From Hydrolagus affinis (taxonomy: Eukaryota): 64,000 bases of DNA. Each line of letters starts with the position of its first letter. The first letter of the stretch is position 1. The stretch spans positions 1 to 64,000 of the forward strand of contig JAAILG010000348.1 of assembly GCA_012026655.1 (NCBI GenBank). The letters are read 5' to 3'. A program made the translations under genes and the position numbers. The notes under the pieces were generated by a model, which saw nothing but the letters and a program-made list of their open reading frames with translations, did not search any database and was not told the origin of the DNA. Of the stretch, positions 12,601-54,100 are shown in pieces.

Positions 12601-13959
12601 CCCCCCCAATGGACAAAACTAACACGGCTGAAGTGGTCTGCACACTGAGGCCCAGGCTGACGTTGGCTGCTTCTACCAAGAGACTCCAAGCCTCATTTGT
12701 TCCTTGCTCTGGTCGAATTACCTCAGCCTTGATTAAAACACACTCGCTGTACATACCATTTAGATTCTGACATGCCTGCTTACAATGACCACCCTCAGTT
12801 AACTCATAAAGCGAGTGTTGCATTACTTACATTTTACTGTTGAAAATGATTTTTTAAAAATGATTTTGGCATTATGTCCTTGAATGGTGCCTTATAGTTC
12901 AAGAAAACCAGCTCTGATCTGGTTACCAAATGGTAGATTGTGTATTACTAGATTTGTGCAGAGTCAACGCAGAGTTTATAAATCATGCTACACTGTGTTT
13001 ACTGCATTAATTTGGATACAAATTGCATTGAAACCCTGCTTCAGGGTAACTACTTTGAGGACACACGAATCGATTTCAGCCACAACATTGACCAATTTAG
13101 TGATACGCTTCTTGAGCTATAAATGTGTTTTATTTGAAGAGGTAATTTGGTGAAATATAAACATTGAGGTAAAAAGAATGAATAGAATAGGATTTTTAAT
13201 TTGGGTTCAGCATGATGGTCATATGTAATTCTCTAATGTTTCTATGTTGTTTGACCTACTCTTCTCTTTTACCAATGACTGAATAAGTAATGGGAAGAAT
13301 TTAGTACTACTTTTTTTCCACTCCTGAGATGCTGCTCTTATTAAAGTGTTTTTTTTCTTCCTCACCAGCATAACATAACCTTTTATGTGTTCACCAGAGA
13401 TTTCACGTCTTCAGCATTTTGGTCATTGCAGATCTCAATATGATTTATGGTTCCTATATTAGATGGAGTTGAGGCATATTCAGATCAGTGTTGTAATCTC
13501 CTACTGTATTATCCATGAGTAGGAGTATGTTCTCTGAATTGATAGTGTAGTTTTGCTCCAGTTGCTATTGAATGATGAATTTTACTTTTTCTGGCAGGCT
13601 TGTTCAGGATTAAATTAAACATTTGACAGATTTATTTGAAAAAGGAAAACAAATGGCAATTAATTTATTTCAACCAGAATTAACAGGGTGTGGTTTCAAT
13701 ATTCCGAATGTTTCAGTTGCCTTCGGCACTGCATTAGCTCTGGGGTAAAGTTCACTTTGGGGGGCTTGGCCAATGTCTGGCATTCATCTGGTACATTATT
13801 ATCCCAGAGAAAGTTTACTTCATGAATGCATGAAATTTCAGCCCGGCAGATTTTAGTGTTTGGAATGTAAAAATAAAAGAACATGGGATATTCAAAATGA
13901 AGAAAAATACATCACATTCAATCAATCACTCGCTCACTCACTCAGTCAGCAAGCTTCAG

Positions 13960-14200
13960 TTCTCCCTTTTGTTTCGCAACATGAACACTTCTTTAACCCT
14001 TCATCTCCTGCCCTCTACCCCATTTTCTCCTTTGTCTTCCTTGCCCTGCCTCCCCTCTGTTAATCCTCAAAAGCCTCTCCCTCCCAAAATGCCCCAGTTC
14101 TGATGAAGGGTCGTTGACCCAAAAAGTTGACTCACTTTTCCTTTCTCCATAGATGCTGCCTGACCTGCTGAGTGTTCCTAGAGACTTCTGTTTTTGTGTC
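13960..14200 (+). mobile_element. Penelope-like element terminal fragment with hammerhead-ribozyme relic
   Basis: cagttCTGATGAagggtc-gtt-gaccc-aaaaagttgact followed by ctccatagatgctgcctgacctgctgagtgtt; homologous to the copies at 17852 and 37962. Confidence 0.7.
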
Positions 14201-14949
14201 AGTTTTACAGGCTTTGACAATCCTTCTCTGTGAGAGCTCCAGTGCTTAGGGGACATTTGGGCTATTGTGTTTCATAAATTGCTTGGTCAGTTACCAGCCC
14301 ATTTAACACAACAGCATTTCACACATTCAGAACCCAAAAGACTAATCGACAGAAAGTCTCAGGGGAACAGTAATCCACTTAATGCATTGATTAGAATATT
14401 TCATCGTACCTGAAGAATCCCTTCTAAAAAATTTGGGTGTTGCCTGGATCACAAATCTCATTATGTTAACAGAATTCTTAAAGCCTATGCACGAATAAAG
14501 AATATGTCAGGATAGGATCTTCCTTCTGTCTCTTAGTATTCTGCATAAATCTCATAGCAGTAATAAATAAACTCAATTCAGAAAGCATTGTACATAATGC
14601 ATTCAATTATTCAATTTGTACACAATATAGTAAAATTTAAAATATTCTTAAAGCAATGGTTCTTAATGGTTGTGGAATAATGCATTCATGGAATACACTT
14701 TCAATTGACTCTTTATAGCTGTCCAATGGGGGAAAAGCACGTAAGTGGATATATTTGACAACCTTATACAAGAGTTCCAGGAAAGGGCTGACTACTATTT
14801 GTATATTGATTTATAAATATCCTGCTGCACAATCCGTGTGTGTTAATGACATCTTATGCCAGATAAAGGGTGTGTTTTTTTTATTAAACAAGGCTCACGG
14901 TGGCTAAGTGCTACAGTATCGGGGGGTGGGGTCTATTTGATGATAAGAT

Positions 14950-15085
14950 ACTAATAAACCTTGCACTTTCTATAACTCCTTTCATATTGGAGGACATCTC
15001 AGTGCTTCACAGGACGACAACAACAACAACAAGATTACAATTATAGAGCGCCGTTCATGTCGGGAGGACGTCCCAAGGCGCTGGC
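14950..15085 (-). mobile_element. Adjacent SINE tail and L2 LINE tail fragments
   Basis: ccttgcactttctataactcctttc...catctcagtgcttcacag then caacaacaacaacaagattacaattatagagcgccgttcatgtcgggaggacgtcccaaggcgctg. Confidence 0.75.
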
Positions 15086-17774: not shown

Positions 17775-17842
17775 CTGATGCCTTGGGACGTCCTCCTGAC
17801 GTGAAAGGCTCTATACAAGTGCAATGTTGTTGTGGTTGTTGC
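17775..17842 (+). mobile_element. L2 LINE 3' tail
   Basis: gccttgggacgtcctcctgacgtgaaaggctctatacaagtgcaatgttgttgtggttgttg. Confidence 0.8.
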
Positions 17843-17851
17843 TGGAAATTT

Positions 17852-18190
17852 GAAACAAAAGCAGAAGTCACTGGGAACACTCAGCAGATCATCTATGGAG
17901 AAAAGAAAGTGAGTCAACATTTTGTGTCCATGGACCCTTCATTAGAACTGGGCCATGTTGGGAAGGAGAGGCTTTTAAGGACTAATGGAGATGGGAGGAA
18001 GCAAGGCAAGGAAGATAAAGGAGAAAATGGGGTAGAGGACCTGAGATGATGGGTTAAAGTGGTGTTAATGATGTGCAACAAATGGGGGTGGGTTGCACCA
18101 AAACAGGAGAGAAGAGGTGTTAATAATGCGAAACAAAGTGGGGATGAGGGGTTTGCAACCAAACAAGCAGGCCAGAGAGAGAAAAAAGGT
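17852..18190 (-). mobile_element. Penelope-like element terminal fragment (second copy, inverted relative to 13960-14200)
   Basis: The reverse complement aligns with 13984-14200 over more than 200 bp; it contains cagttCTAATGAagggtccatggacacaaaatgttgact. Confidence 0.75.
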
Positions 18191-18409
18191 GTGTCTGGGA
18201 TCCAGATCACAGAAGACCATTACCTCACTATTAATATAGTAATACAAAAGTGCACAATATGGTAGCTTGGCTTATTAAAAATCAGTTGAGTACCTCTTAT
18301 TTAATGGTTTCCTTGTACTTGTTGTATCTTCATTCCTTCCATTTGGAATAGTGCCTCATTATGTCATTAGAAGGTCCGAAAGCAGTTCACAAAATTCACC
18401 GCAAAGTAC

Positions 18410-23312: not shown

Positions 23313-24158
23313 CAAGTAAAGGAACTTAAATTTCTCATGCACTGAAATGTATTGACTTTGAAGTTGTGAGCTGGAATGGCACATTGGGGGAAAATCTCTT
23401 TAGACTTTGGAATTTCTGCTGAAAGACATTTCTCACGGCAGGATGGAAGTGAAAGTGAGTCACAATCAGCAGTTCTCTTGTGCATTTTGGCAAATGTTAG
23501 CAAATGTTTCAAAGCAATGTTGGCAGAGCCCTGGTTGCAGGTCTTTTATTGAATAATGAATGGTATGTGGTATGTAGAAACACAACTGAGACCATGAACC
23601 CAAAGTAGGACAAGTAATAAAATAAAAACTTGAAAAATACTAATCAGCATCGTGCCTTTGAATCAACTTACTTCTGATGCTTCATTAGCATTTTTAGCAT
23701 ATTAATAAAAAATAATTAGCACTTCTATAATTAATAATATTTCAGACTTCATGCAGCCAAAAAATAAACATTCTAAAGAGCCAACACTGACAGTGTTAGA
23801 AGTCTGTAGATTTCCATTGAATGGAAACAAGCCACTTGACCCAACTGATACATGACAGTGTTTATACACCACATGAGCCTCTACCCCTCCCAATTCCCAC
23901 TTCCATATTCCTTCTACATCTATGTCGCAATTTATTTGAGTTTTAATTAACTTCAGTCTCAAGTGAAACTACATTGTCTGTAGCATGCATTATCTAGACT
24001 GCATCATTCTATGTGAAAGAGATTACATCCGTAATTCATAAATAATAACCCATGGGCTTCTTAATTGAGACTTGATGAATGGAGGTATTAGAATGGTTCT
24101 ATGTAATTTTTGTGCTATGTAATTTTACATTGGTGGACTCCACGTTTACACATCTAGT

Positions 24159-24480
24159 GGAGCTCCTGTAGCTCAGTGGTTGGAGCACTCATCTTACAAG
24201 CGTGAGACCTGTGTTCCAATCCAGGCAGGTCAGGGCGAAACCTTGGGTAAGTTTTCTTACTCCACACGCCTAATAATAATCCATCAAAAAAAACAATAAT
24301 AAAAATTGGTCATTTTCTATCCACGATTGTTTGTGGGGACGCTGCTGTGCGCAATTGGCTGCCGCGTTTCGCCCACAAATATACAGTCAATTAACTTTAC
24401 AGTATATTCTGTGTAGCGCTTTGAGACGTTGATAAGATGTGAAAAGCGCTTTATCAAATGCAAGAATTATTATTATTATA
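24159..24480 (+). mobile_element. Full-length tRNA-derived SINE (short subfamily)
   Basis: ggagctcctgtagctcagtggttggagcactcatcttacaagcgtgagacctgtgttccaatcc head (box A/B, TAC anticodon-like loop); CpG-retaining body; tail gcgctttgagacgtt...gtgaaaagcgctttatcaaatgcaagaattattattatt. Confidence 0.93.
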
Positions 24481-24702
24481 GTTTACAGTGAATGGATTTC
24501 CTAGGGTTTCTTACCCTGTCATTTTAAATGAGCAGCAGATAACTGCCCTTATATGTATTAAGGTTAGGATTTTCACACATCACTTTCAAAAAGTTGTCGG
24601 ATATTTGTGCATTCAAAAGGTGTGAAAGTGCTGATGTCCTTTTTTGAATCTGTAAGTGCATTTCTTTTGATATGTGCTAACAATTCTTATTAAATACACA
24701 TA

Positions 24703-27786: not shown

Positions 27787-28418
27787 ACAACAACAACAAA
27801 ATCACAGTTCTACAGCGCCTTTCACATCAGGAGGATGTCCCAAGCACTGGACAGTCATTGTTTCAGCTGGGGACAGGGTGGGGGGGGGTGGGGCGGGGGG
27901 AATTAGGAGTAGCCAATGGGACCTTCGAAGAGGAGGGTCTTGATGGTGGGACTGGAATGAGGCAAGGGATGGTGTGAGGTGGAGCGACTGCGGGATGGAG
28001 TTCCAGAGGTTGGGAGCAGAGTGGCTAAAGGCTCGTCCGCCAATGGTGGGACAGGTAGGTCGGGGACGTGGAGCAGGCTGGAGTTTTAGCGGCCTTGGGG
28101 CTAAGGTGGTAGCGAAGTCGGACAATATTGCGGAGATGAGGGAAGGCAGAGCGAGTCATTGCTTGGATGTGGGGGAGGAAAGACAGTTGAGGATCGAACA
28201 GGATACCTAGGTTCCTGACAGGCTTGATGAGGTTGAGCGAGCAACCATGGAGGTTGATGCTGCTAGCACCTGATGCGTGAAAGCACTGGCATGAGTTAAT
28301 CAGTAGGGCCTCTGTCTTGTTGTCATTCAATTGTAGAAAGTTAGCTCTCATCCAGGACTTGATGTCTGACAGATAGTCTCTAGGACAGTAGTAGTTCTGG
28401 AGTCGAGGGTGGAGGCAA
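27787..28418 (-). mobile_element. 5'-truncated L2 (CR1/L2 clade) LINE
   Basis: ORF fragments LSDIKSWMRANFLQLNDNKTEALLI, VRNLGILFDPQLSF and GGRAFSHSAPNLWNSIP; tail ...gacatcctcctgatgtgaaaggcgctgtag...(ttg)n. Confidence 0.93.
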
Positions 28419-28480
28419 ATCTTTAAATGATTTTCTTTTTCACACTTCCTGGCTTCAATGTTGTCTTTATTATAACTAAA

Positions 28481-28850
28481 CATTGCATTTTAGGAAGTGT
28501 CTTATCACATCATCAAATTATCAAAGCCCTTCATAGGATTTACTGTAAAGTGTAGCGACTGTGTATTTTGTAGGCAAATGTGGGAAATAGTGGTAACAGC
28601 AAATGTGGGGGACTATTGTCCACTACAGTAGGAGGAAAAGCACCCCTCTTGTACCAAATAATGCCGTGGTATCTTTAACATCCATACGTACAGGTAAATG
28701 GGTCCTCTGACAAGGATCTCCCAGCAAATCTCCCAGCATTGTACTTGTACATCAGCCTGGACTACAGCCTTTAAAACCCAATTTGGGGCTGATTAAACCA
28801 CAATGTCTGACTCAGAGGTGATAGTGTTATCAACTGAGGCAGGCTGACAC
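28481..28850 (-). mobile_element. Deu-domain tRNA-SINE, near full length, old
   Basis: Reverse-strand head gtgtcagcctgcctcagttgataacactatcacctctgagtcagac; body includes ggatgttaaagataccacggcattatttg; L2-type tail at 28481-28560. Confidence 0.7.
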
Positions 28851-30545: not shown

Positions 30546-31416
30546 AGTGGCAATGGCACAGGATTGCCACCTTGATTTTTGACCTTGTTATCATTTGTGA
30601 TCAAATCTAAATATTCGAAAATCTGTATCACCTTGGGAGAGGGCTAAAAAAACCACCCGCGAGCCAGTTCCCCAGGTGTAGGATAGTCACTGGCCAGAAC
30701 GTAATTAATCTCCATGAAATTCTCCAGCCTTCATAAATCAAAACAATGCACTGCGCTATCTATATAATAGTTGTTTTCGTATTACTTGCTTTTATGTACC
30801 ACATTCTGTGCTTTGAACTGTTTGAAAACTATTCTAGCACAATAAACCTGCTTCAGAAGCTTCTGTTGGATGGTTTGTAACTGCCATTTCCTTAATAAAT
30901 TTGTGAATAATTGTTGTGCTGTCTTGTACCAGGGCTGAAAAAACGATTCTTTGTGCTTTACCTTTAAAATGGAATACAATACTCTTTTGAGCAATCAGCG
31001 CAAAGTAGTCATTTGGTCTAAAATGCAATGGTAAGTCACTGTTAATTACTGAATGCATTTGAAATCTGGTACCATTCGATGCAAGAAGTAAGCAGCTCAC
31101 CAGTCATGTTATATGTTGCCCCAGTTGTGAAACGATTTAAACGTTCAGTTTATTTCATGCCTACATTCTGATCAGAGAGCAGATCAATGATACAGATCAA
31201 GTAAAGATGGATGACCAAGGTGAGTGGTGCGTTCTTCCTAACGAGCTCAAAAACTCAACCCCTGAACCAAATGCATTAAGAACGTGTCTTAACAAAAGAG
31301 AGTCGCCAGAGTGCATACTCTGCATGTGATCACCAATGGGTCAAGCTAAAGAAGCAACAATCAATACAGGCATCACATCGAGTGCAAGTGAGAGGAGATG
31401 GCAAACAATCACAAGG

Positions 31417-31930
31417 TGAGAAATTGTTTCTAAGCTCTGAATATGGCAGATCTGTGACCGAGCATTGCCTGCATATTAAAGTAAAGTACAAAGGAGTATG
31501 GTGAAAATAATTACGGTAAAATGGAAATCAAATTCCGATCAATTCCAAGGAGGTTTATAAAAGAAGTAGAGGAGCTGAAAGAGCATTGAGCCCATGACTA
31601 TAGGCGGTCACATCAAGGATAAAGTAGAAAGTCGGTCTGAGACAAGAGACATCTATTATGAAAAGAAGAACCAAGATGAGAAATTGTTTCTAGTTCTGAA
31701 TATGGCAGATCTGTGACTGAGCATTGCCTGCATATTAAAGTGCAAAGGAGTATCATGAAAATAATTAAGGTAAAATGGAAGTAAAATTCCGATCAATTCC
31801 AAGGAGGTTTATAAAAGAAATAGAAGAGGAGCTGAAAGAGCATTGAGCCCATGACCATAGGCGGTCACATCAAGGATAAAGTAGAAAGTCGGTCTGAGAC
31901 AAGAGACATCTATTATGAAAAGAAGAACCC
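31417..31930. repeat. Tandem duplication, period 260 bp (31417-31676 and 31677-31930)
   Basis: Both units run tgagaaattgtttcta...gacaagagacatctattatgaaaagaagaacc with only scattered substitutions and small indels. Confidence 0.97.
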
Positions 31931-32699
31931 AGGAGGTTTTTCATCTGCTACAGTAAATTTCAGGAACAAGGTCTAGCAGTTCCTGCAATTGCTTTTCGTC
32001 TGCTTGTGGGTTCAGCAACAGGCAAGTTCACATTGCTGCTGCTATTATGGGATCACAGGTGTTGAATTACTGGGATCGCAGTTCTACTTCACATGGATTT
32101 CAGCTTTAACTCCTCACTTTGGAAAAAAAACCCACATAGAAATAACTAAGAGACGATGAAGTGAACATCCAGTTGCATTTTGTACTGTTTACTCTGATAT
32201 TCATTATGAAACCCAACAACAACAACAATAACTTCGATTTATATAGTGTCCTCCACGCCGGACGGCATCTCGGAGCGCTTTGACCAATTGCCTACACTGA
32301 GCGAAATAGGGATATGGTGAAATACAGCATTGCAATTAATATATATATAAAGTCTCTTGTCAACTGCTGTGAATTTAGTAATAATAATCCTTGCATTTGA
32401 TATAACGCCTTATCGTGACTCCAAGGTATTTAGTTTTTACAAAGAGCCACTAAGAGGCAGGTAGCATAGATATGAACTATATTACTCCCTCCCCAAAGTC
32501 ACTTAGACATAAAGCAAAAGTATCAGTGTGTTTCAGTAGATTACCACGAATTGAGTACAGGAATGCTGCCTTGATCCATCATTCATCAAGTCCAAATGAA
32601 CCTAAACTCCACTGCCTGTATACTCACCACTGCCTGTATACTCACCACTCACACAATCCACAAGTCCAGCATCACAATCCTTGTTTGACACCTTCAGCT

Positions 32700-36045: not shown

Positions 36046-37961
36046 TATTATTGTGGCATTTTATGTTTTTTTTTGTATCCTAAATACAGAGTTCATAGAA
36101 ACAGGGTATGATTCTATTTTTCAAGATAGGTGAAGTTTTCTGTTATAGGTTTTATAGTTGGTAGAGTTTCTTGTTATAGGTTTTACGGGAAACATTGTGA
36201 GTGGAAGGCTACTGTTACTCAACTTGAACTGAGGCCATATGAGGTCGTGGAATGTGAGCTGAAGCGTGACCTCTGGGATTTGAGCTGCAAATGACATTGG
36301 GTTTCATTTCGCTTTGTGTTTTTCAGAAACAACCCTTACATGTTATCTCGTGTTCGTCACCAGATTTTCGAAATCAAGTGCAACAAAGCTTCGAGCAGAG
36401 TTTGCTCATCCAGGCCTTGGTCCACTGCAGATCAGAGGCCCTCATATTTATCACATTTTTATGCATCAGACATTACCAACTACCAACTGATGCAGTTAAA
36501 GTACATTGACCTAAACCAACAAGGACTTGCATTTGTATTGTGTGCTTTATGTAAGATAACATCTTAGATACTTCACAAGGAAAAGAATCAGACTATGAGG
36601 GCATGAGAAGGGATAGGGGTTGTTGATGGGAAATATGGTAGGTTTGTATGCAAGATTTAAAGTTTTATAGAGAAGGGGTGAGGCAGAGAGCTAGAAAGAG
36701 TGAGTCCATAGCTGATGGCATATTGAAGGGACCTCTCAGAGTGTAGATTGCAGCAAGCCATGAATTTTCGATGGAAAGGAATGTACATCAGTCATTTTCA
36801 TTATTTAGAGTTTTGAATTATATCCTACAAAAGTCATATGTTTTTTTTAAAACAAGTATCTACTGTTTATTTTGTAGTTTTCCTTTTTTAATTAATTATA
36901 CCTAGCATGAATGCTCAATTCAAGGTAATATGCTTGTAGCCACTGGAGGGTGCAATCAAAGCTGAAGAGTGCTTAACAAATATATGTCAGGGTAAAATTG
37001 TGAAACCAGGTACTTTACAAAATCTCCGAAATGATTTTAACCTGGGATTTCTTGAAATTCCTGAAATTTTCAGAAAAATTAGAAAAATTAATTTTCTGAA
37101 ATTAGTGATTAGGAAATCACAAAATACAGAGTTACTCCACTACATTATGCCATGTGAAGCACTTTGGGATGTTGTCTTGATGTGAAATGCAAGAAAAAAT
37201 TATTTGTTGTTAACTAATTCTACAGCCGGGGTGCACTCAATCAATGGGAATTTGTCAGCGTGTAAGTGTCAATCATAAACTGATTAGACTTAAAAAGGAC
37301 AATAAAACAATCGAGTGGAACAGGTTACTATGGATGATCCGTGAAATTGGCAGTGCTCAGCCTCAATGGTTTATTTATGTTCCCTTTAATGAATCTAGAT
37401 GTATTACTTTTGCCCTTAAAATAAAATCTGGAAAGAGGTCACTTGAAAAGTTATTTAAGGATAATTTGAATGCTGGGTAGATTAATCAGATGTGCTCACA
37501 GTTGAATTTGAACCAACTGTGAAATTAATGGCCAGAATTAACTTCTTGTATGAAACTGAGAGGCTTTTCTTTTTGTGTATTCTAAAATAGCAAATCCAGG
37601 CGTTTAGGTTCAATATAAAGTCCCATCCCCAACTGTTAGAACAAGCATGTGCACTATCAATCCCTCACCATGGTTTCTGGTTTAGTTCTTCTTGTTCCAA
37701 TCTCAGTTTCTGCAACCCTTCAGCAGAAAATAAAAATAGGCCTTTAACTATGGTTATTTAATTGTATAACCACATTCATGTCAATGTCGTCCTTAATGAT
37801 GCAACCGTAGATGATTAGGTATTGGTGGTTCAGCTACATTTTATTTTATCAGTGTTCAGGTTAATCCATTCCAGTGCAGTACACGTCACTCTATAATTCA
37901 ACACTGAACAAAGAACAGCTCACTATTGCATTGGGTCAACAAGTCAGGCTATTATTTTGAG

Positions 37962-38100
37962 TGACACAAAATGCAAAATACTATAAATGCTGGAAATCTA
38001 AAACAAAAACAGAAATCGCTGGAAACACTCAGCAGGTCAGGCAGCATCTATGAAGAAAGGAAAGTGAGTCAACGTTTCAGGTCCATGAGCCTTTGACAAA
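37962..38100 (-). mobile_element. Penelope-like element terminal fragment (third copy)
   Basis: The reverse strand reads ...ggacctGAAACGTTgactcactttcctttcttcatagatgctgcctgacctgctgagtgtttccagcgatttctgtttttg, homologous to 14116-14200. Confidence 0.75.
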
Positions 38101-38500
38101 AGGGTGTTTCTGTTTTATTATTTTGAATTTACGGCTAGACTTCAGACACTCAATACATCTGACTCATTGTAATTAGACTAATAAGGGAAACAGGTCAAAC
38201 ATATACGAATGTGTGATGTTATTGAATGCTGTACTTAATATGCTCGCATGAGCTTTCTCTGGTTATCATGATTCAGCAGCAGATAGTGAGAGCCTCATAG
38301 ATGGGTGATGTATCAAGAAACATTTTGCAACTGGAAAACTTTAGAACCAATAGGTGCTCATTGACTGTACAGTAATTAGATGCTTACCGGAACCTTACAC
38401 AACTCAGAGTCATAAGCAACACTGTCAGCTTCTCAGTGCTAAATGTCGTTTCTCTTGACAATTAACGTTCCACTGCCCTGATTTTTTTCTTTTTATTCCT

Positions 38501-38805
38501 GGAGTCCGGTAGCTCAGTGGTTAGGGAAGTTGCCTTACAAGCGAGAAACCTGGGTTTGATTCCAGGCAGGGGAAACCGTGGGTAAGTTTCCTTATTCCTT
38601 ATGCCTAATAATAATCCCTCCCAAAAAAATTGGTCAATTCAATCTATGACTGTTTGTGGGACACTGCTGTGCGCAATTGGCTGCCGCTTTTGCCCACAAA
38701 TATAGTCAATTCAATTTACAGTATATTCTGTGAAATGTTTTGAGACGTCTAGAAGACGTGAAAAGCTCTATATTAAATGCAAGGATTATTATTATTAGTA
38801 GTATT
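38501..38805 (+). mobile_element. Full-length tRNA-derived SINE (short subfamily)
   Basis: ggagtccggtagctcagtggttagggaagttgccttacaagcgagaaacctgggtttgattcc head; same body and (att)n tail as 24159. Confidence 0.93.
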
Positions 38806-39434
38806 AACCTTCCTCATAAGTAGCGTGCAGAAATTTATGTGAACCTATCACCATCACCATTTGCATTAGTACCATTTTTATTAAACACTCCACCATCATG
38901 ACTCACCGTCACTGAGACAGAGCAGCGAGCTTCTGAAAACCTGCTTTGAATGCTCCTGCTATAAATTGGAGTTGAGCACAAAAGCACACTTGCACACTTT
39001 GTCCATAATTTCAGACTATTTTTGAACTGTTAGCATATTATAAAGAATGAAAAGGTCGCAAAGAATTTGTAAGTGCCTAGGTGGTTCTGAGTGTGGCAGT
39101 TCTGTGATTTTATATGCACAATGAATTATATAGGATCTTTGATGAAAAATATCTTAAAACAGTTTTATTCGAATCCTTGTAGTTTCGAGTCCTGAAATAG
39201 CCTATTTAGATTTGTGGAATATGAATTCAAAATCGAAGTTTAAACACATATACGGTGTGACGAATACATTTATATTGTGTCTAATCATGACAGGAGGATC
39301 ACATTCCATACTGTGCTGAACATTAAAAGATTACCATAAAGAGCCTAATGTAATGCATTTGGCTAGTTATCCTGCATTTTATAAAAAATGCATGAATGCA
39401 TTATTTTAGTTCTCAATTTTGATTTTCAATTATC

Positions 39435-39974: not shown

Positions 39975-40053
39975 CTTGGAAAATATCTTTACTGTAGAGA
40001 TTTAATATTCATAGTATGAATATTAAATCTCTACAGTAAAGATATCATCCAAG
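39975..40053. repeat. Near-perfect palindrome / hairpin
   Basis: 39983-40013 (atatctttactgtagagatttaatattcata) is the exact reverse complement of 40015-40045 with a 1-nt spacer; pairing extends through a 2x2 mismatch to cttgga/tccaag. Confidence 0.97.
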
Positions 40054-41096: not shown

Positions 41097-42067
41097 GTAA
41101 GTTTTGGTGAGGTGTTAGTTTCAAACATAAAAATAGAAAATTCACATGTTATTTTGATACAAACATTTTGAAGTTAAAAAAATATATAGTTTGGGTCACT
41201 TCAGATTAGTTTAGATTTCTAACCAGATAATCCCTCTACCTGAAAAGACTTTGTAATTGTGTTCCCCAATACAGTACATAACTTTCACAGATACATCTGA
41301 GGCTGATTTATTATATTACATTTATTACTTTATTGTTCTTATGGCAGATTTGAGGTTCTTGCTACATCTTTTTACTTTGTGCATCAGCTGTGAATGGGAC
41401 TGAGAAACCAGGGTGATTTGAGAAAGCTTTTTGCTTTAATTGTTTCACCCAATAGGTACATTATTCACAACATTGTAATGTTTATATATCAACTATGTTA
41501 ATCTCATTTTATTAAATAAAAGCATCGCTCTAGGCAATAGTTTGATACTCAATGCACATGTGTAAAGCAAAGTTATGAGAGATATCAACATATAATTGTT
41601 CCAGCTCATTTGGTTTTGGGTGAATTGCTCGCTTGAAAGCACCTATTAGTTCACTCTTATTTTTTCAGTTAATTTACATATTGGGACTCGTGGTTATAAT
41701 AATTTGATCAAATATATCGTATTGCATTTCATGATCAATAGATTAATTGTGTATATACAGTATAATCAAAACCATTCCTGCATACTGATGAGTGAAATTG
41801 AAGAATTGACACAAAATCAATTTTTTTCCACATTCAAATATTAATGAATTGGAGCCGTCTCTTTTGGAGTATTTTCTTGTGGTAGTCCTTGAGTCTCCTG
41901 CGTTTGTAATGGACGCCTCCATTATTGTACCCCTGTGGAAAAGATATTGACCCAAAATGTAGACACAAGAGTTTTCCAATGGCATGTGGCATACCAAGGA
42001 ATAATTGAAATGGCATTTTTTTGACAGTCGCTATGTCTAATATGTTACATGTCCCAACTTCATTTTG

Positions 42068-42437
42068 AATGTCCCCTCCGTTCAGCGAGCTCTGCCCTGC
42101 TCCACGTCCTGTCCCGTCCCCGAACCGCCCTATCATCGGTGGCCGGGCTTTCAGTCTCTCTACCTCCACACTCTGGAATTCCATCCCGCAATCCCTTGGC
42201 CTCGCTTTCTCCCTTTCCTCCCTCCAGGCCGGTCTCAAGACCTTCCTCTTTGACTGTGCCTTCCGCTCCCCACCTAATACTCCCCTGTCTCCTACTCTCC
42301 TTTCCACTTCCACAAACTCTCCCCTTCTTCCGCCCCCCCCCACCCCCCACTCGAGTCCCTACCCAACTGTTCAGTGCCTTGGGACGTACTCCCGACGTGA
42401 AAGGCGCTCTATCAATGTAATTTTGTTGTTGTTGTTT
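42068..42437 (+). mobile_element. L2 LINE 3' end, relatively young
   Basis: IGGRAFSLSTSTLWNSIPQSL...LKTFLF; CpGs retained; tail gtgccttgggacgtactcccgacgtgaaaggcgctctatcaatgtaattttgttgttgttg. Confidence 0.93.
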
Positions 42438-43109
42438 GCTTAATTTTAAACAATAGAATTGGCAATTCAATATTATCTCCTTCTGCTTGCTGGATACTCG
42501 ATGGGTTTGACGGCATTTCAGACTACTCCTTTCAGTGGGAATTTTGTAAGCGACAATTTGCACATTTTACAATTTTCACCAGCCTAAATTTTTAACAGAG
42601 GGAGTATGACATTGTCAATCCCCATAAACTAAAACACGTTTATCGCAAATGCGTGCACAGACAAATCTGTTCAATTTAGGATCTTGTGGGAAATCTTTGT
42701 ACAAATTAACAGCTCGGGTGTGCTTCCTCAAGTTGCAATTTGAAAATAGGTGGTAGGTAATCAGAAAGAGAAAGTCTGGTGACACCGCATGGTTCCAGAG
42801 AAATATGCTTCTGTGCCCACATGTTGCCAAGTTCCTCATCTCAGTTGTGTTTTGCTCTGGGGTGGATGAAAGCTGGAGTAGTCATTTGATGGACCTTTCC
42901 CATGTATCTCAAAATACTGGTAAACATTATCAGCGGATGTCCATCTCTCATTACCATATGACATGTCAGGAGGGAACATAAACAGTGTATTTAGTGTATT
43001 TGAAAAAGAGGAGGAAATTTCTCCTAGTATACAGGACAACAATCCTCCAGATAAGATCCCCCATGTTGTGAAATGCACCTAGACCAAATCATTCCTAACG
43101 ACACAACAG

Positions 43110-49735: not shown

Positions 49736-50860
49736 TGATGCGTGACACAACCTACTGTTTAGTGTGAATTTAAACATGTGGATCACGGAAGTTCAGCGTT
49801 CAAATCTTTGCTGTGTATTATGTTAGTTCTCAATCAGTCTTGTAGTAGAGGTATGACATTTCATTGCAATGCTCCTGGAAAAAGAAAGGTAAAGCTGCGA
49901 TTCCCAATGCGGGTTGTTATTCAGAGATTCTTGCTGATATGTGTGGATGTTGGGTAGGAATTTGATCTGATTTAATTGTTGATACAGCTGTACTTGCAAA
50001 ACCTGCTAGTACATAGTTAGTCAGTGGTCTGGATTTGATGATAAAAGTAATCCTTGCATTTGATATAGCTCCTTATCACATTTTCAAGACATCTCAAAGC
50101 ACTTCAGAGAATATAGTTTGAAGTGAATTGACTTTGCTGGAGTAAATTGAAGGAGTGGGTGAGGGGCTGGGGGGATTTAATATATATGTTGTGACAAAAA
50201 TACCACACATTTTTTATATCAACTTATAGCACCATTCACGTCAGGAGAATGTCCCAAAGCGTCTTTCCTACAATTGGAAAAGTTGGAAAACTGCTTCTTT
50301 GAGATTCCCTTAGTAAAAACATTGTACAAAAAAGAGCCAACTCTCTAATAGAGATTCTGTTATTTACTTGTTCTGTGAACATGAATGCGATTAATTAATT
50401 CAATCAATATTTTACACCTCAGTTCCTTTGCTTTGTAATCCCACTAATAACTGAGTATGAATTATCAATAATACTGATATATTCCTGTTGTACTGCAGTA
50501 TCAATCACTAGACTTTGTTGAGCAATATTCCCGGTGGTAATAAGTCCTTTTTAATGTGTTAGAGGCAATAGAGGCAGTCGCTAACTGGAACTATTTCTCC
50601 TCGTAGTCTTAGAATGTATGTTGATTATTCCTCTTGTGGCAGATATCATAAAATGACTCAGCCTCAGACAAACCTACATTTTCTGTGCATGTGTATACAG
50701 CATATTTAGTTCAATACAAATGAACTGATTCTATTTTAACAACCGCGTTGGCCCCATTGTGTCAAACAGAGAAGGCAAACAGTCAGAAAATCACAAGAGT
50801 TTATAGTATAAATGCCTCAATATTGTGTGTGTTGATAGTCCATTGGAATAGCTAATTGCA

Positions 50861-51167
50861 TAATAATAAAAATAATTCTTGCATTTGATATAGCGCTTTT
50901 CACGTCTTCTGGATACTTAATTCCAGAATATACTGTATATTGAATTGACTGTATATTTGTTGGCGAAACGTGGCAGCCAATTGCGTACAGCAGTGTCACA
51001 CAAACAGTTATGAATTAAAATGACCAATTTATTAATATTATTTTTTGAGGGATTATTATCAGGTGTGTGGAGTAAGGAAATCTGCCCAAGGTTTTGCCCT
51101 GCCTGGAATTGAACACAGGTCTTTCGCTTGTAAGGTGAGTCCTCTAATGACTGAGCTACAGGGCTCC
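50861..51167 (-). mobile_element. Full-length tRNA-derived SINE (short subfamily)
   Basis: The reverse strand begins ggagccctgtagctcagtcattagaggactcaccttacaagcgaaagacctgtgttcaattccaggcagg; tail at 50861-50910. Confidence 0.93.
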
Positions 51168-54100
51168 ACATATCTGGGGATAGTGTATACTTTGGGGGCA
51201 CGACGTGTCAAACGACTGCCAAGATGGTGGAAGTTGAACCAGATGGACCGTAGTCTTCTTTTGCCAACAAATTCTTACATTCAATATCCTCTCCAAATGA
51301 GCTTTAAAACTCTCTCACGTGTTTTTTCTTCCAGCAGTTAACCCAAAGCATACTCCGGGCTCTCCGCAAGTCTTGGCTCTTGCCAACCTGCGCCTAATAC
51401 TCTCTGTAATGAGGTTCAATTGAATAATAACAAACTTTACATTTGTAGAGCACCTTTCACATTGGAAGAATGTCTCAAAGCGCTTCATAGGAGGTGTGCT
51501 GCATAACTGATTAGAGAGAAAACTAACCACATCGCCCATTACTTCAGACTTAAAACACACCCTTCTAGTTAAGTGATCTTGTCAAGATTTTACCATAGTT
51601 TAACTACATTGTTACCCTATCACGCATACACAAATCTAGAGTTGATAGATGCAAATCTAATAAAATGGTTAGTACTGAATGCCCAAGCAGAACTTTATTG
51701 GTTTGAATTCTACCGTTGCCCATGTAGATTCCGCCCCTTTTGAAATTAACAAAATGTGTACCACGTCCAAGTATAGTCTTCTTGGTAAAGTTTAACCAAG
51801 TATTGATCCTGCTTCAAGGGTTAACAATCCTGGGCATTGTTGATGGTTGATCAGCCTGAATGATTTATTTATGGAGAATCTTGGAGGTGTAACCATTTCT
51901 TCAACCTGGGATTTTTAAGAATAATGAATGTTTTTTTTCCTCAAATGTTAGCAGGGCCAGTTTGATAACATCAGCCTTTCTGCTCCCTATGTTTCTATGC
52001 TAGAATAGGTATGAACTAAATTACTGGTGGGGAAATCGCAAAGCCGGGAGGCAATAATGAGAGACTATTGCAGGATTTACAAAGTAGAAGTGATTGAACA
52101 TGTCCAACATATATATAAAAAAAGGCCTTGGGGGAAATATAGGCTCTGAACTTTGCGGGAAAAAAGAATGCCTAGGGAGAATGGCTGTCAAAATCAAGGA
52201 GGATAGCAAGGTGTACCAAAAGCAATTTGATACTGTTTACAGATGGACAAAAGCAAACCTTGCTGCTGTTAAACTGCCCGTGAAGGATTCTAGGACAAAA
52301 TAGTAGATGAAAAGCCTGCTCTGGGTGTCAATCTTTGAGTTGTGGGCAGGACTTGGAGCAAGATATTGTGGCCAGAAGCGGGCAAGTACCTTACAATTCA
52401 AATGTGTTCGCAGATTTTCCAAACAGTCCAAGTGTCAAGGGAAATGAGTATACTTCAGAAGTGTAAATTTTTCTTGCAGTTTAAGTCTTCTACAAGAAAT
52501 GTAATCCTGTTTGATCACACAAGATATACAAAGACAACAAATCAAGAAAGCTTATACATTAGAAAACAACAAAAACACTGAATCAATGCCGTAAGTAAAT
52601 CTATGATTCATGTGTGCCTTAGCTATATATAATCATTACACCTTAAGCATTGGATTCAGACTCCAAAGGTTGGTTTTAAATTAATTGTATTTGAGGCAAA
52701 CACGTATCTTAAGAATCTAGAAATTTTAGAATGGTCCAAAATCTCCTATACTTCAAAATCAATTAAATTGCTTCAAATATTGAGAAATATTTGCATGAAG
52801 CCACCTGCCTCAAATTTTCCTTAGAGCAGATTAAAACTGCTTGTTCATAGATATTGACAGGGACTGAAATTCATACATTCACACAAGTCCATCCTCAAGC
52901 CTGCCAGGCATCACTAATACAGTTAACATCACTCCTTTTGGTGTAAAACTGATGCATGTTGACATCATTCACTCTTAAAAATTAACAGTCCCATTATGTT
53001 TAAATCGGTTTGTAAAGTACGCCAATCTTGCTGATCATCAATGTCACTCCTCACATTCCACTAATGCTAGCAGTTCTGTCTGTACTGAATAAAACCTCAA
53101 ATCAATGATGAAATCTTGGGCACAATACCATTGTAAGGAGAGAAGAACAGTTTATTTGTTCGAGTCGCAGATTTCACCTTGCACAGTTAATGTAAACAGG
53201 TTTTGCTGAAAGAAGAGTCTTTCTTTGAATTTGTCTAAGCAACTTCAAGATGGTCTAACTGTCCCTCTTCTCCATTGTGCCATGATCATTAGATTTTCAC
53301 ATTCAGATCCCACAGAGTTTCAAAAGTATAAGAAATTGGAAGGCAAATTAGCTCCAGGGATGAGATCTGCATGAGGTCTGCTTTTTGAATCATGGCAAGC
53401 AATGTTTTATTTCTCATACAGCTGTAGCGGAGCAACTTAAATGAGTTAGCTAGCTGTGAGTGAAACTGGCTTTGCCCAGCAGCACCTCCAAACTAATATC
53501 AGCATGAAACTTGAAACACACAGTTTAGTAGTGCTTATTCTGCCAAGTTCTCATCGTCCACCATATTCAACTGCTGAATGCAGAACCCACCCACTCGACC
53601 CCACTCTTTCCTGTGCCAAACCGATCAGAGTGGTCTCACATTTGCTATACATTCCTGGAAAGCAGAGTATAGACTGGAGCTGAGCTCACTAAGGAAAATG
53701 ATACATGATAAGGGTTTCTAGAAGTATTTACACTTATCTTATGACACCAGTAGTCATACTGGTAGAAGAAAATTTGGGACGAGGCCTGAGAGAGCGAGAT
53801 TGATTATTATTACCTATCTATATCTAATGGATAAGACAAGCCTTGAATGGTATTGGACGGTTAATCAAAAGAGATACACAGTAGTACACTACAGTATTAG
53901 GATTTTAGGAGTGCAGAACACTGCCTATTCTCAACTCATGTTAATAACTCTGTGATCCACTGTTGAATCCAGTACCACATGTTTCATACAATAATGCAGT
54001 GTGAACTCATCAGTACTCATTGAGGACAGCCTCCTGATTTTATTATGCTGTGTTTGTCTGAACATTGCTAAGATACTTGAATGACTTTCATTCTCTAGAA

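Follow-up and report, generated by a model that had tools for sequence, protein, structure and literature searches.

Decayed hammerhead-bearing end fragments of a Penelope-like retroelement, likely of the Neptune clade, in Hydrolagus affinis, and a sharp 5′ limit at the ribozyme edge

Minimal hammerhead ribozymes are known from the pLTRs of Penelope-like retroelements, for which Cervera and de la Pena 2014 (PMC4209133) described low activity and a dimer model. The role of hammerheads in these elements was called unclear by Craig et al. 2021 (PMC8557442), in whose account a CX2-5CXXC linker marks Neptune and Nematis. Inverted partners, tails, duplications and solo pLTRs were described by Arkhipova et al. 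2013 (PMC3846280). For the anole Poseidon element PAc, Frangieh et al. 2024 (PMC11167929) traced the tail to two internal priming sites and found that the template needs sequence downstream of these sites. For Penelope of D. virilis, Schostak et al. 2008 (PMC2377424) located the start site 5′ of an intron, whose end maps to helix I (PMC4209133). The literature search, with subscription journals outside its scope, returned nothing on Neptune Penelope-like elements in sharks or on a strong-stop product with a hammerhead. None of the texts searched was found to describe a 5′ limit at the ribozyme edge; supplements, Repbase and subscription papers may hold one.

The window analysed here is a stretch of 64,000 nt from Hydrolagus affinis (contig JAAILG010000348.1, positions 1 to 64,000). 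Three repeat copies within it are mutually 80–85% alike over 100–250 nt, and no ORF remnants of an element were found within the window. On balance, these copies are probably dead end-fragments of an abundant Penelope-like element, likely of Neptune type, with a dimer-type hammerhead and with an RNA that likely starts at the first bases of the ribozyme.

Copy 1 (13953–14210, forward strand) is a 5′-truncated element end that comprises part of the 3′ UTR, the hammerhead and the tail up to the first 3′-end site, and it shares 87–89% identity with endonuclease-linked copies. Its decayed minimal type-I hammerhead (14096–14132) is composed of a stem I strand at 14096–14099, an intact first box CTGATGA at 14100–14106, stem II at 14108–14120, GTT at 14126–14128 and GACT at 14129–14132, and the predicted cut falls between 14128 and 14129; the second box has decayed, positions 14121 and 14125 deviating from the family. 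The segment 3′ of this hammerhead (14133–14210), which is leader or tail, continues into the ORF start in long copies. Copy 2 (17840–18205, reverse strand) contains 3′ UTR, the hammerhead and part of the tail, and its 3′ end at 17841 adjoins another repeat; in its hammerhead (17912–17949), both boxes have changed and loop II has 4 nt. Copy 3 (37961–38104, reverse strand) is a hammerhead-to-tail stub that runs from the 5′ edge of the motif to the second 3′-end site. In its decayed hammerhead (38067–38103), the second box and the palindrome are intact, and the first box and stem II are changed. It represents a complete small insertion with an exact target-site duplication of 11 bp, the upstream copy of which lies at 38116–38126 and the downstream copy at 37950–37960 (reverse strand). 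The 11 nt of filler between the duplication and the stub (38105–38115, reverse strand) bear, by eye, a weak resemblance to an inverted scrap of the tail.

The first-pass annotation, made from the letters of the window, had read copies 1 and 2 in the same way: the box assignments and coordinates of copy 1 are borne out, and so are the position of copy 2 (17949–17912), the changes in both its boxes and its 4-nt loop. For copy 3, the location and the intact second box stand, but the motif is not confined to its second half, because the profile alignment spans all of it (38103–38067). The view that each copy had lost core bases, partly at CpGs, also holds, and a minimal-hammerhead descriptor accepts none of them, with 0 matches in the window as it stands and 0 across 30 shuffled versions of it.

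Intact counterparts are present elsewhere in the genome. A DNA search of the 1.11-Gb genome returned 4,687 candidates, of which 40 were scored, and 30 loci were fetched; all 30 align to the motif of the first-pass annotation. CUGANGA, GAAA and UH are the majority state in 30 aligned copies, and the family retains both boxes. In 30 copies of subfamily A the most changed positions are four CpGs, of which one coincides with the G of the second box and another falls within the palindrome. A 32-nt pattern of the intact minimal type-I hammerhead had 300 exact matches genome-wide (reversed-pattern control, 0), and the consensus formerly reconstructed from three decayed copies is thereby found as real sequence. 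A 29-nt tail pattern matched exactly 6,332 times (control, 0), and the first 100 of these matches listed served as a tail-picked sample of 99 usable copies (L262 gave no row). The full descriptor was passed by 10/99 of them, and both boxes together with the palindrome core were kept in 16/99. The scan for known hammerhead models proposed earlier gave a different outcome: no hammerhead family of Rfam was matched at E up to 10, either in the window or in the intact copy L002. Head-to-head pairs of fully intact hammerheads, less than 20 bp apart on opposite strands, were noticed at C614:43657-43739 and C5418:4274-4353.

Three subfamilies, identical in their catalytic boxes and palindrome, were distinguished by loop II and flanks; the window copies belong to subfamily A. 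The first stem II pair is G-C in subfamilies A and B. When both positions of this pair were left free in the subfamily C context (n = 11), 10 copies had A-U, the remaining one had T and C, and none had G and C. The 3′ partner is T in 31/35 C-type rows versus 16/65 other rows (a hand count over the 100 of 307 matches listed). Stem II shows compensatory change, at one pair only, which is the covariation expected in the first reading of the window. Helix I has 4 bp, and its U-G pair becomes U-A in subfamily C by a one-sided change. In an intact natural copy, the fold with helices I and II was predicted at −8.2 kcal/mol, compared with a minimum of −9.0, and the 6-nt palindrome, serving as a minimal helix III, could permit a dimer (predicted duplex, −3.5 kcal/mol). 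The family motif is, by this structural analysis, a complete minimal type-I hammerhead, whose cleavage is predicted to require a dimer or the help of a protein; that the family master was a self-cleaving RNA is suggested by published relatives.

Judged by sequence, the ribozyme of the family is the hammerhead that Cervera and de la Pena 2014 described in pLTRs, and this arrangement was already known. As in the available text of that study (PMC4209133), helix I has 4 bp, one base stands between A9 and helix II, helix III is minimal and palindromic, a G10.1-C11.1 pair occurs (here in subfamilies A and B), and the copies are mostly single and dispersed, with close opposite-strand pairs, fish Neptune elements being among the carriers. 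By contrast, helix II has 5 bp here and 7–8 bp in the Schistosoma families, the 10.1-11.1 pair is A-U in our subfamily C, and the copy ends are mapped relative to the motif here, which the available text there does not do. Alternatively, the motif could have lost cleavage in this family and be retained because it acts as a structure or binds a protein. Such a role would fit the inactivity of monomeric minimal hammerheads in vitro (PMC4209133), the anole ribozyme mutants that still insert and the RNA reads there, none of which ends at the cut site (PMC11167929), as well as the copy ends described below, which do not accumulate at the cut site. However, the boxes and the palindrome are identical in three subfamilies that differ in stems and flanks, and the anole ribozyme cleaves with protein (PMC11167929); we give this alternative hardly any credence and keep to a dimer-type ribozyme.

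A protein search of the genome returned 3,522 candidates, of which 150 were scored. In the longer copies, GIY-YIG cleared its Pfam cut-off (E 1.9e-5), and RVT_1 stayed just under its own (E 3.1e-6; 27.5 bits, cut-off 29.6 bits); in L025, a frame with GIY-YIG-type sequence (Pfam E 0.018, below cut-off) ends ~220 nt upstream of the motif. The RT stretch had no match in a comparison with solved structures. The RT of long copies carries a DKG motif, and the GIY-YIG endonuclease is C-terminal in one ORF. Between RT and endonuclease, a CX2-5CXXC linker (CX4CX2C) was found in one frame in 14/20 long copies. Subfamily A is joined to the endonuclease, and one copy of it (L053) reaches the RT core, so that the repeat is physically linked to an ORF with RT and GIY-YIG, as had been anticipated. 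By these sequence features, the element is an endonuclease-bearing Penelope-like retroelement, likely of the Neptune clade, an assignment by the linker motif that Nematis shares.

The distance from the stop codon to the motif is ~220–310 nt, and that from the motif to the likely start codon ~170 nt. Walking upstream in long copies, the tail passes directly into the likely start codon, ~170 nt after the core; both element ends therefore carry the motif, as in published pLTRs. The hammerhead after the stop codon and that before the likely start codon come mostly from different copies, partial tandems such as L110 excepted. The order is thus hammerhead, ~135-nt leader, likely start codon, RT, zinc-finger-like linker, GIY-YIG, 3′ UTR, hammerhead and tail, a layout pieced together from several broken copies and with a full 5′ end mostly from subfamily B. 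The ORF of ~2.8 kb was summed from two copies, and no unbroken ORF occurs among the copies seen, the frames being broken in every one. According to the available text on Neptune (PMC8557442), one ORF with RT followed by GIY-YIG, the DKG motif, the CX2-5CXXC linker, a CCHH-type endonuclease, an inverted 5′-truncated partner and an optional tail of 30–40 bp are found there as well; unlike there, the upstream repeat is here usually hammerhead plus tail, with a long pLTR in 1/7. The ORF of anole PAc starts within stem II (PMC11167929), whereas the likely start codon is ~170 nt downstream here.

An internally deleted unit of ~1.1 kb, extending from one hammerhead to the next, has been amplified (L134, L137, L139, L140 and L318–L321). 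Its second hammerhead joins at the DKG-motif codons, where both sequences look alike, and several copies of the unit are preceded by one and the same flank, which belongs to another repeat. Two bases ahead of the likely start codon, a pyrimidine tract with a terminal TAG was also observed (L139 at ~820–845; L122, L125 and L342), and by its composition it is possibly a second 3′ splice site within the leader.

The ends of the copies were mapped in a numbering in which the C of CUGA is 0 and the predicted cut falls between +28 and +29. The 5′ ends of 42/99 tail-picked copies lie at −6 to 0 (p 4e-22 versus an even spread over −40 to +44); 21/99 lie further upstream and 36/99 at +1 to +45, and the predicted cut site (+27 to +31) received 3/99, compared with 4.0 expected. 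By eye, the end-calling script erred for ~7 of the 36 downstream-called copies, which are internally deleted and really start at the limit, and for 3 copies called short that in fact extend further upstream, one of which is counted in the 42. About 10/99 copies (L220–L317) have called 5′ ends at −22 to −38, near a branch-point-like motif, at least three of these calls being script artefacts. In two sets picked by the core pattern, 26/30 and 25/30 copies start within 12 nt of the core. Among 142 short copies, the family base is present at frequencies of 0.81, 0.80, 0.77, 0.61 and 0.51 at −1 to −5 and falls to background at −6. The 5′ limit is therefore sharp and lies 4–5 nt upstream of CUGA, with microhomology blurring the junction. 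An accumulation of 5′ ends at the cleavage site was looked for and not found; look-behind patterns, which differ in the number of subfamilies that they cover, gave truncations in 9/15 matches at the cut site, 2/6 at +3 and 14/28 at +20. At the limit itself, a cap-like G was counted in 13/27 copies (p 0.011) and a neighbouring test gave 9/26 (p 0.33), which may hint weakly at a cap-derived G at the 5′ end and is given no weight here.

A limit of this kind could be set by the copying machinery, through a stall, a fold-back at the palindrome CAG-TT-CTG or trimming of the cDNA, on an RNA that starts further upstream. The palindrome covers exactly −5 to +2, an inverted partner is present in 53/99 tail-picked copies, 18 of which start at −6 to 0, and palindromic inverted junctions were taken as self-priming by Arkhipova et al. 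2013 in the available text (PMC3846280). On the other hand, the base profile at the limit is alike in 93 short copies with an inverted partner and in 49 solo stubs without one, its stem of 3 bp is much weaker than stem II, at which ends show no accumulation, and a stall at the folded ribozyme would be expected on its 3′ side, near +33. We consider a limit made during copying unlikely, and prefer a limit that is the 5′ end of the RNA.

Target-site duplications adjoin the limit, often within 0–8 nt, and duplications of at least 10 bp were found in 24/49 solo stubs versus 3, 5 and 4 in mispaired controls. These duplications bear on the idea that the limit is a splice junction, in which the hammerhead would open an exon behind a 3′ splice site CAG at −5 to −3 and the copies would derive from spliced RNA. 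A pyrimidine tract and CAG do immediately precede helix I; in copy 1 the pyrimidine-rich tract with its terminal CAG, as read from the sequence, occupies 14066–14097 (forward strand), directly before the hammerhead. By consensus, this tract would pass for a putative 3′ splice site, with a possible initiator-like motif overlapping it, and the base frequencies at −5 to −3 resemble those of exon ends, which counts for a splice junction. The intron end of D. virilis Penelope was placed likewise (PMC4209133). Yet the flanks of the 142 short copies share only two 12-nt matches with the element body and match each other nowhere beyond host repeats, so no common upstream exon was seen; because of this and of the adjoining duplications, the splice junction is disfavoured, and we hold it to be highly improbable. 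A captured host or element exon upstream of the stubs was likewise rejected.

The limit is common to stubs and to ORF-bearing copies. Among 30 ORF-start loci, the motif was reached in 10, and counting four with one common flank once leaves 7 independent cases; 5/7 start at −3 to −6, one at +5 and one at −128. At the other end, the 3′ ends of tail-picked copies lie at +92 to 107 in 49/99 and at +128 to 138 in 39/99, two clusters ~33 nt apart. It might be supposed that the stubs stem from a separate short non-autonomous master of ~140 nt, SINE-like or retrozyme-like, given that they outnumber long copies (55 short versus 18 long cores in the tail-picked sample) and that pLTR-derived non-autonomous hammerhead elements have been reported in vertebrates (bioRxiv 10.64898/2026.07.22.740005). 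The non-LTR retrozymes of animals in the available part of that preprint are similarly hammerhead-bearing, ORF-less, pLTR-related and present in a chondrichthyan. They form tandem units, however, whereas the stubs here are single or head-to-head and have their ends in common with ORF-bearing copies. No retrozyme-type head-to-tail units of 150–400 nt were noticed among the loci examined, nor head-to-tail stub arrays, a longer unit of ~1.1 kb being present in L134, L137 and L139. Moreover, the stubs occur in all three subfamilies and with both 3′ ends, and the limit is that of ORF-bearing copies, all of which speaks against a short master; we regard it as improbable and return to the copying of the element's own RNA.

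From the 42/99 and 5/7 ends at the limit and the 3/99 at the cut site, we infer that the templates were likely uncut and that the 5′ end of the RNA likely lies at the first bases of the ribozyme. The stubs would then be a fossil map of 5′ ends, the RNA starting at the hammerhead and being primed 100–135 nt inside, so that most insertions would be a strong-stop-like run-off of uncut RNA; we put this forward tentatively, as a quite plausible reading that falls a little short of probable. The enzyme would nick the target and start copying the RNA within the leader, ~100 or 133 nt 3′ of the core, as was shown in vitro for the anole element. Priming on the 5′ repeat would lead to run-off at the 5′ end of the RNA and leave a stub of 105–140 nt, often with an inverted twin, and for longer copies a read-through RNA would have to be primed on its 3′ repeat. 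The template RNAs would probably remain uncut by the ribozyme, and the inserted copies would then have decayed, mostly at the four CpGs. If sequence downstream of the priming sites is needed as in the anole element, its presence in the 5′ repeat only would explain why stubs dominate. Against an RNA start at the limit stand the 21/99 tail-picked copies and the 1/7 ORF-bearing copies that extend upstream of it.

The available text on anole PAc (PMC11167929) similarly reports two 3′ ends that define a tail downstream of the hammerhead and no ends at the cut site, the uncut template being found there and inferred here. It differs in that a 5′ limit lies at the ribozyme edge here and none is reported in the main text there. 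Since the D. virilis start lies upstream of an intron that ends at helix I, a start at the ribozyme would depart from the published pattern. If the proposed reading is true, it would explain the origin of pseudo-LTRs and of head-to-head stubs and would show that the ribozyme does not make the ends of the template. The end map gives in-genome support for uncut RNA as template, in agreement with the in vitro result on the anole element, and it predicts sharply where the element RNA starts.

Reads from four sequencing runs were aligned to one copy, the RNA run being from another organism. In this RNA run, family reads were about equal on both strands, with no start or end peak; because thousands of copies are read passively, these reads cannot isolate element transcripts. 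Strand-switch joints at −2/0 were present among them (53 reads, 21 starts).

Several other features were observed in the window. A near-perfect inverted repeat at 39975–40053 has arms of ~39 bp and a 1-nt centre, and microRNA models matched it below their cut-offs. A tRNA-headed repeat family, likely a SINE, is present at 2745–2841, 24157–24482, 38500–38806 and 50860–51169, and ARAGORN called a tRNA-Val at 2749–2819, inside the first of these. Fragments resembling a LINE 3′ end with short CAA-rich ends were found at 27787–28489 and 41834–42450 (both reverse strand), the former containing an RT-like peptide at 28025–28489. Short LINE-like copies also occur, such as 15018–15083 and 17780–17841, one of which adjoins copy 2. 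At 31412–31932, two head-to-tail copies of ~260 bp each are 92% alike.
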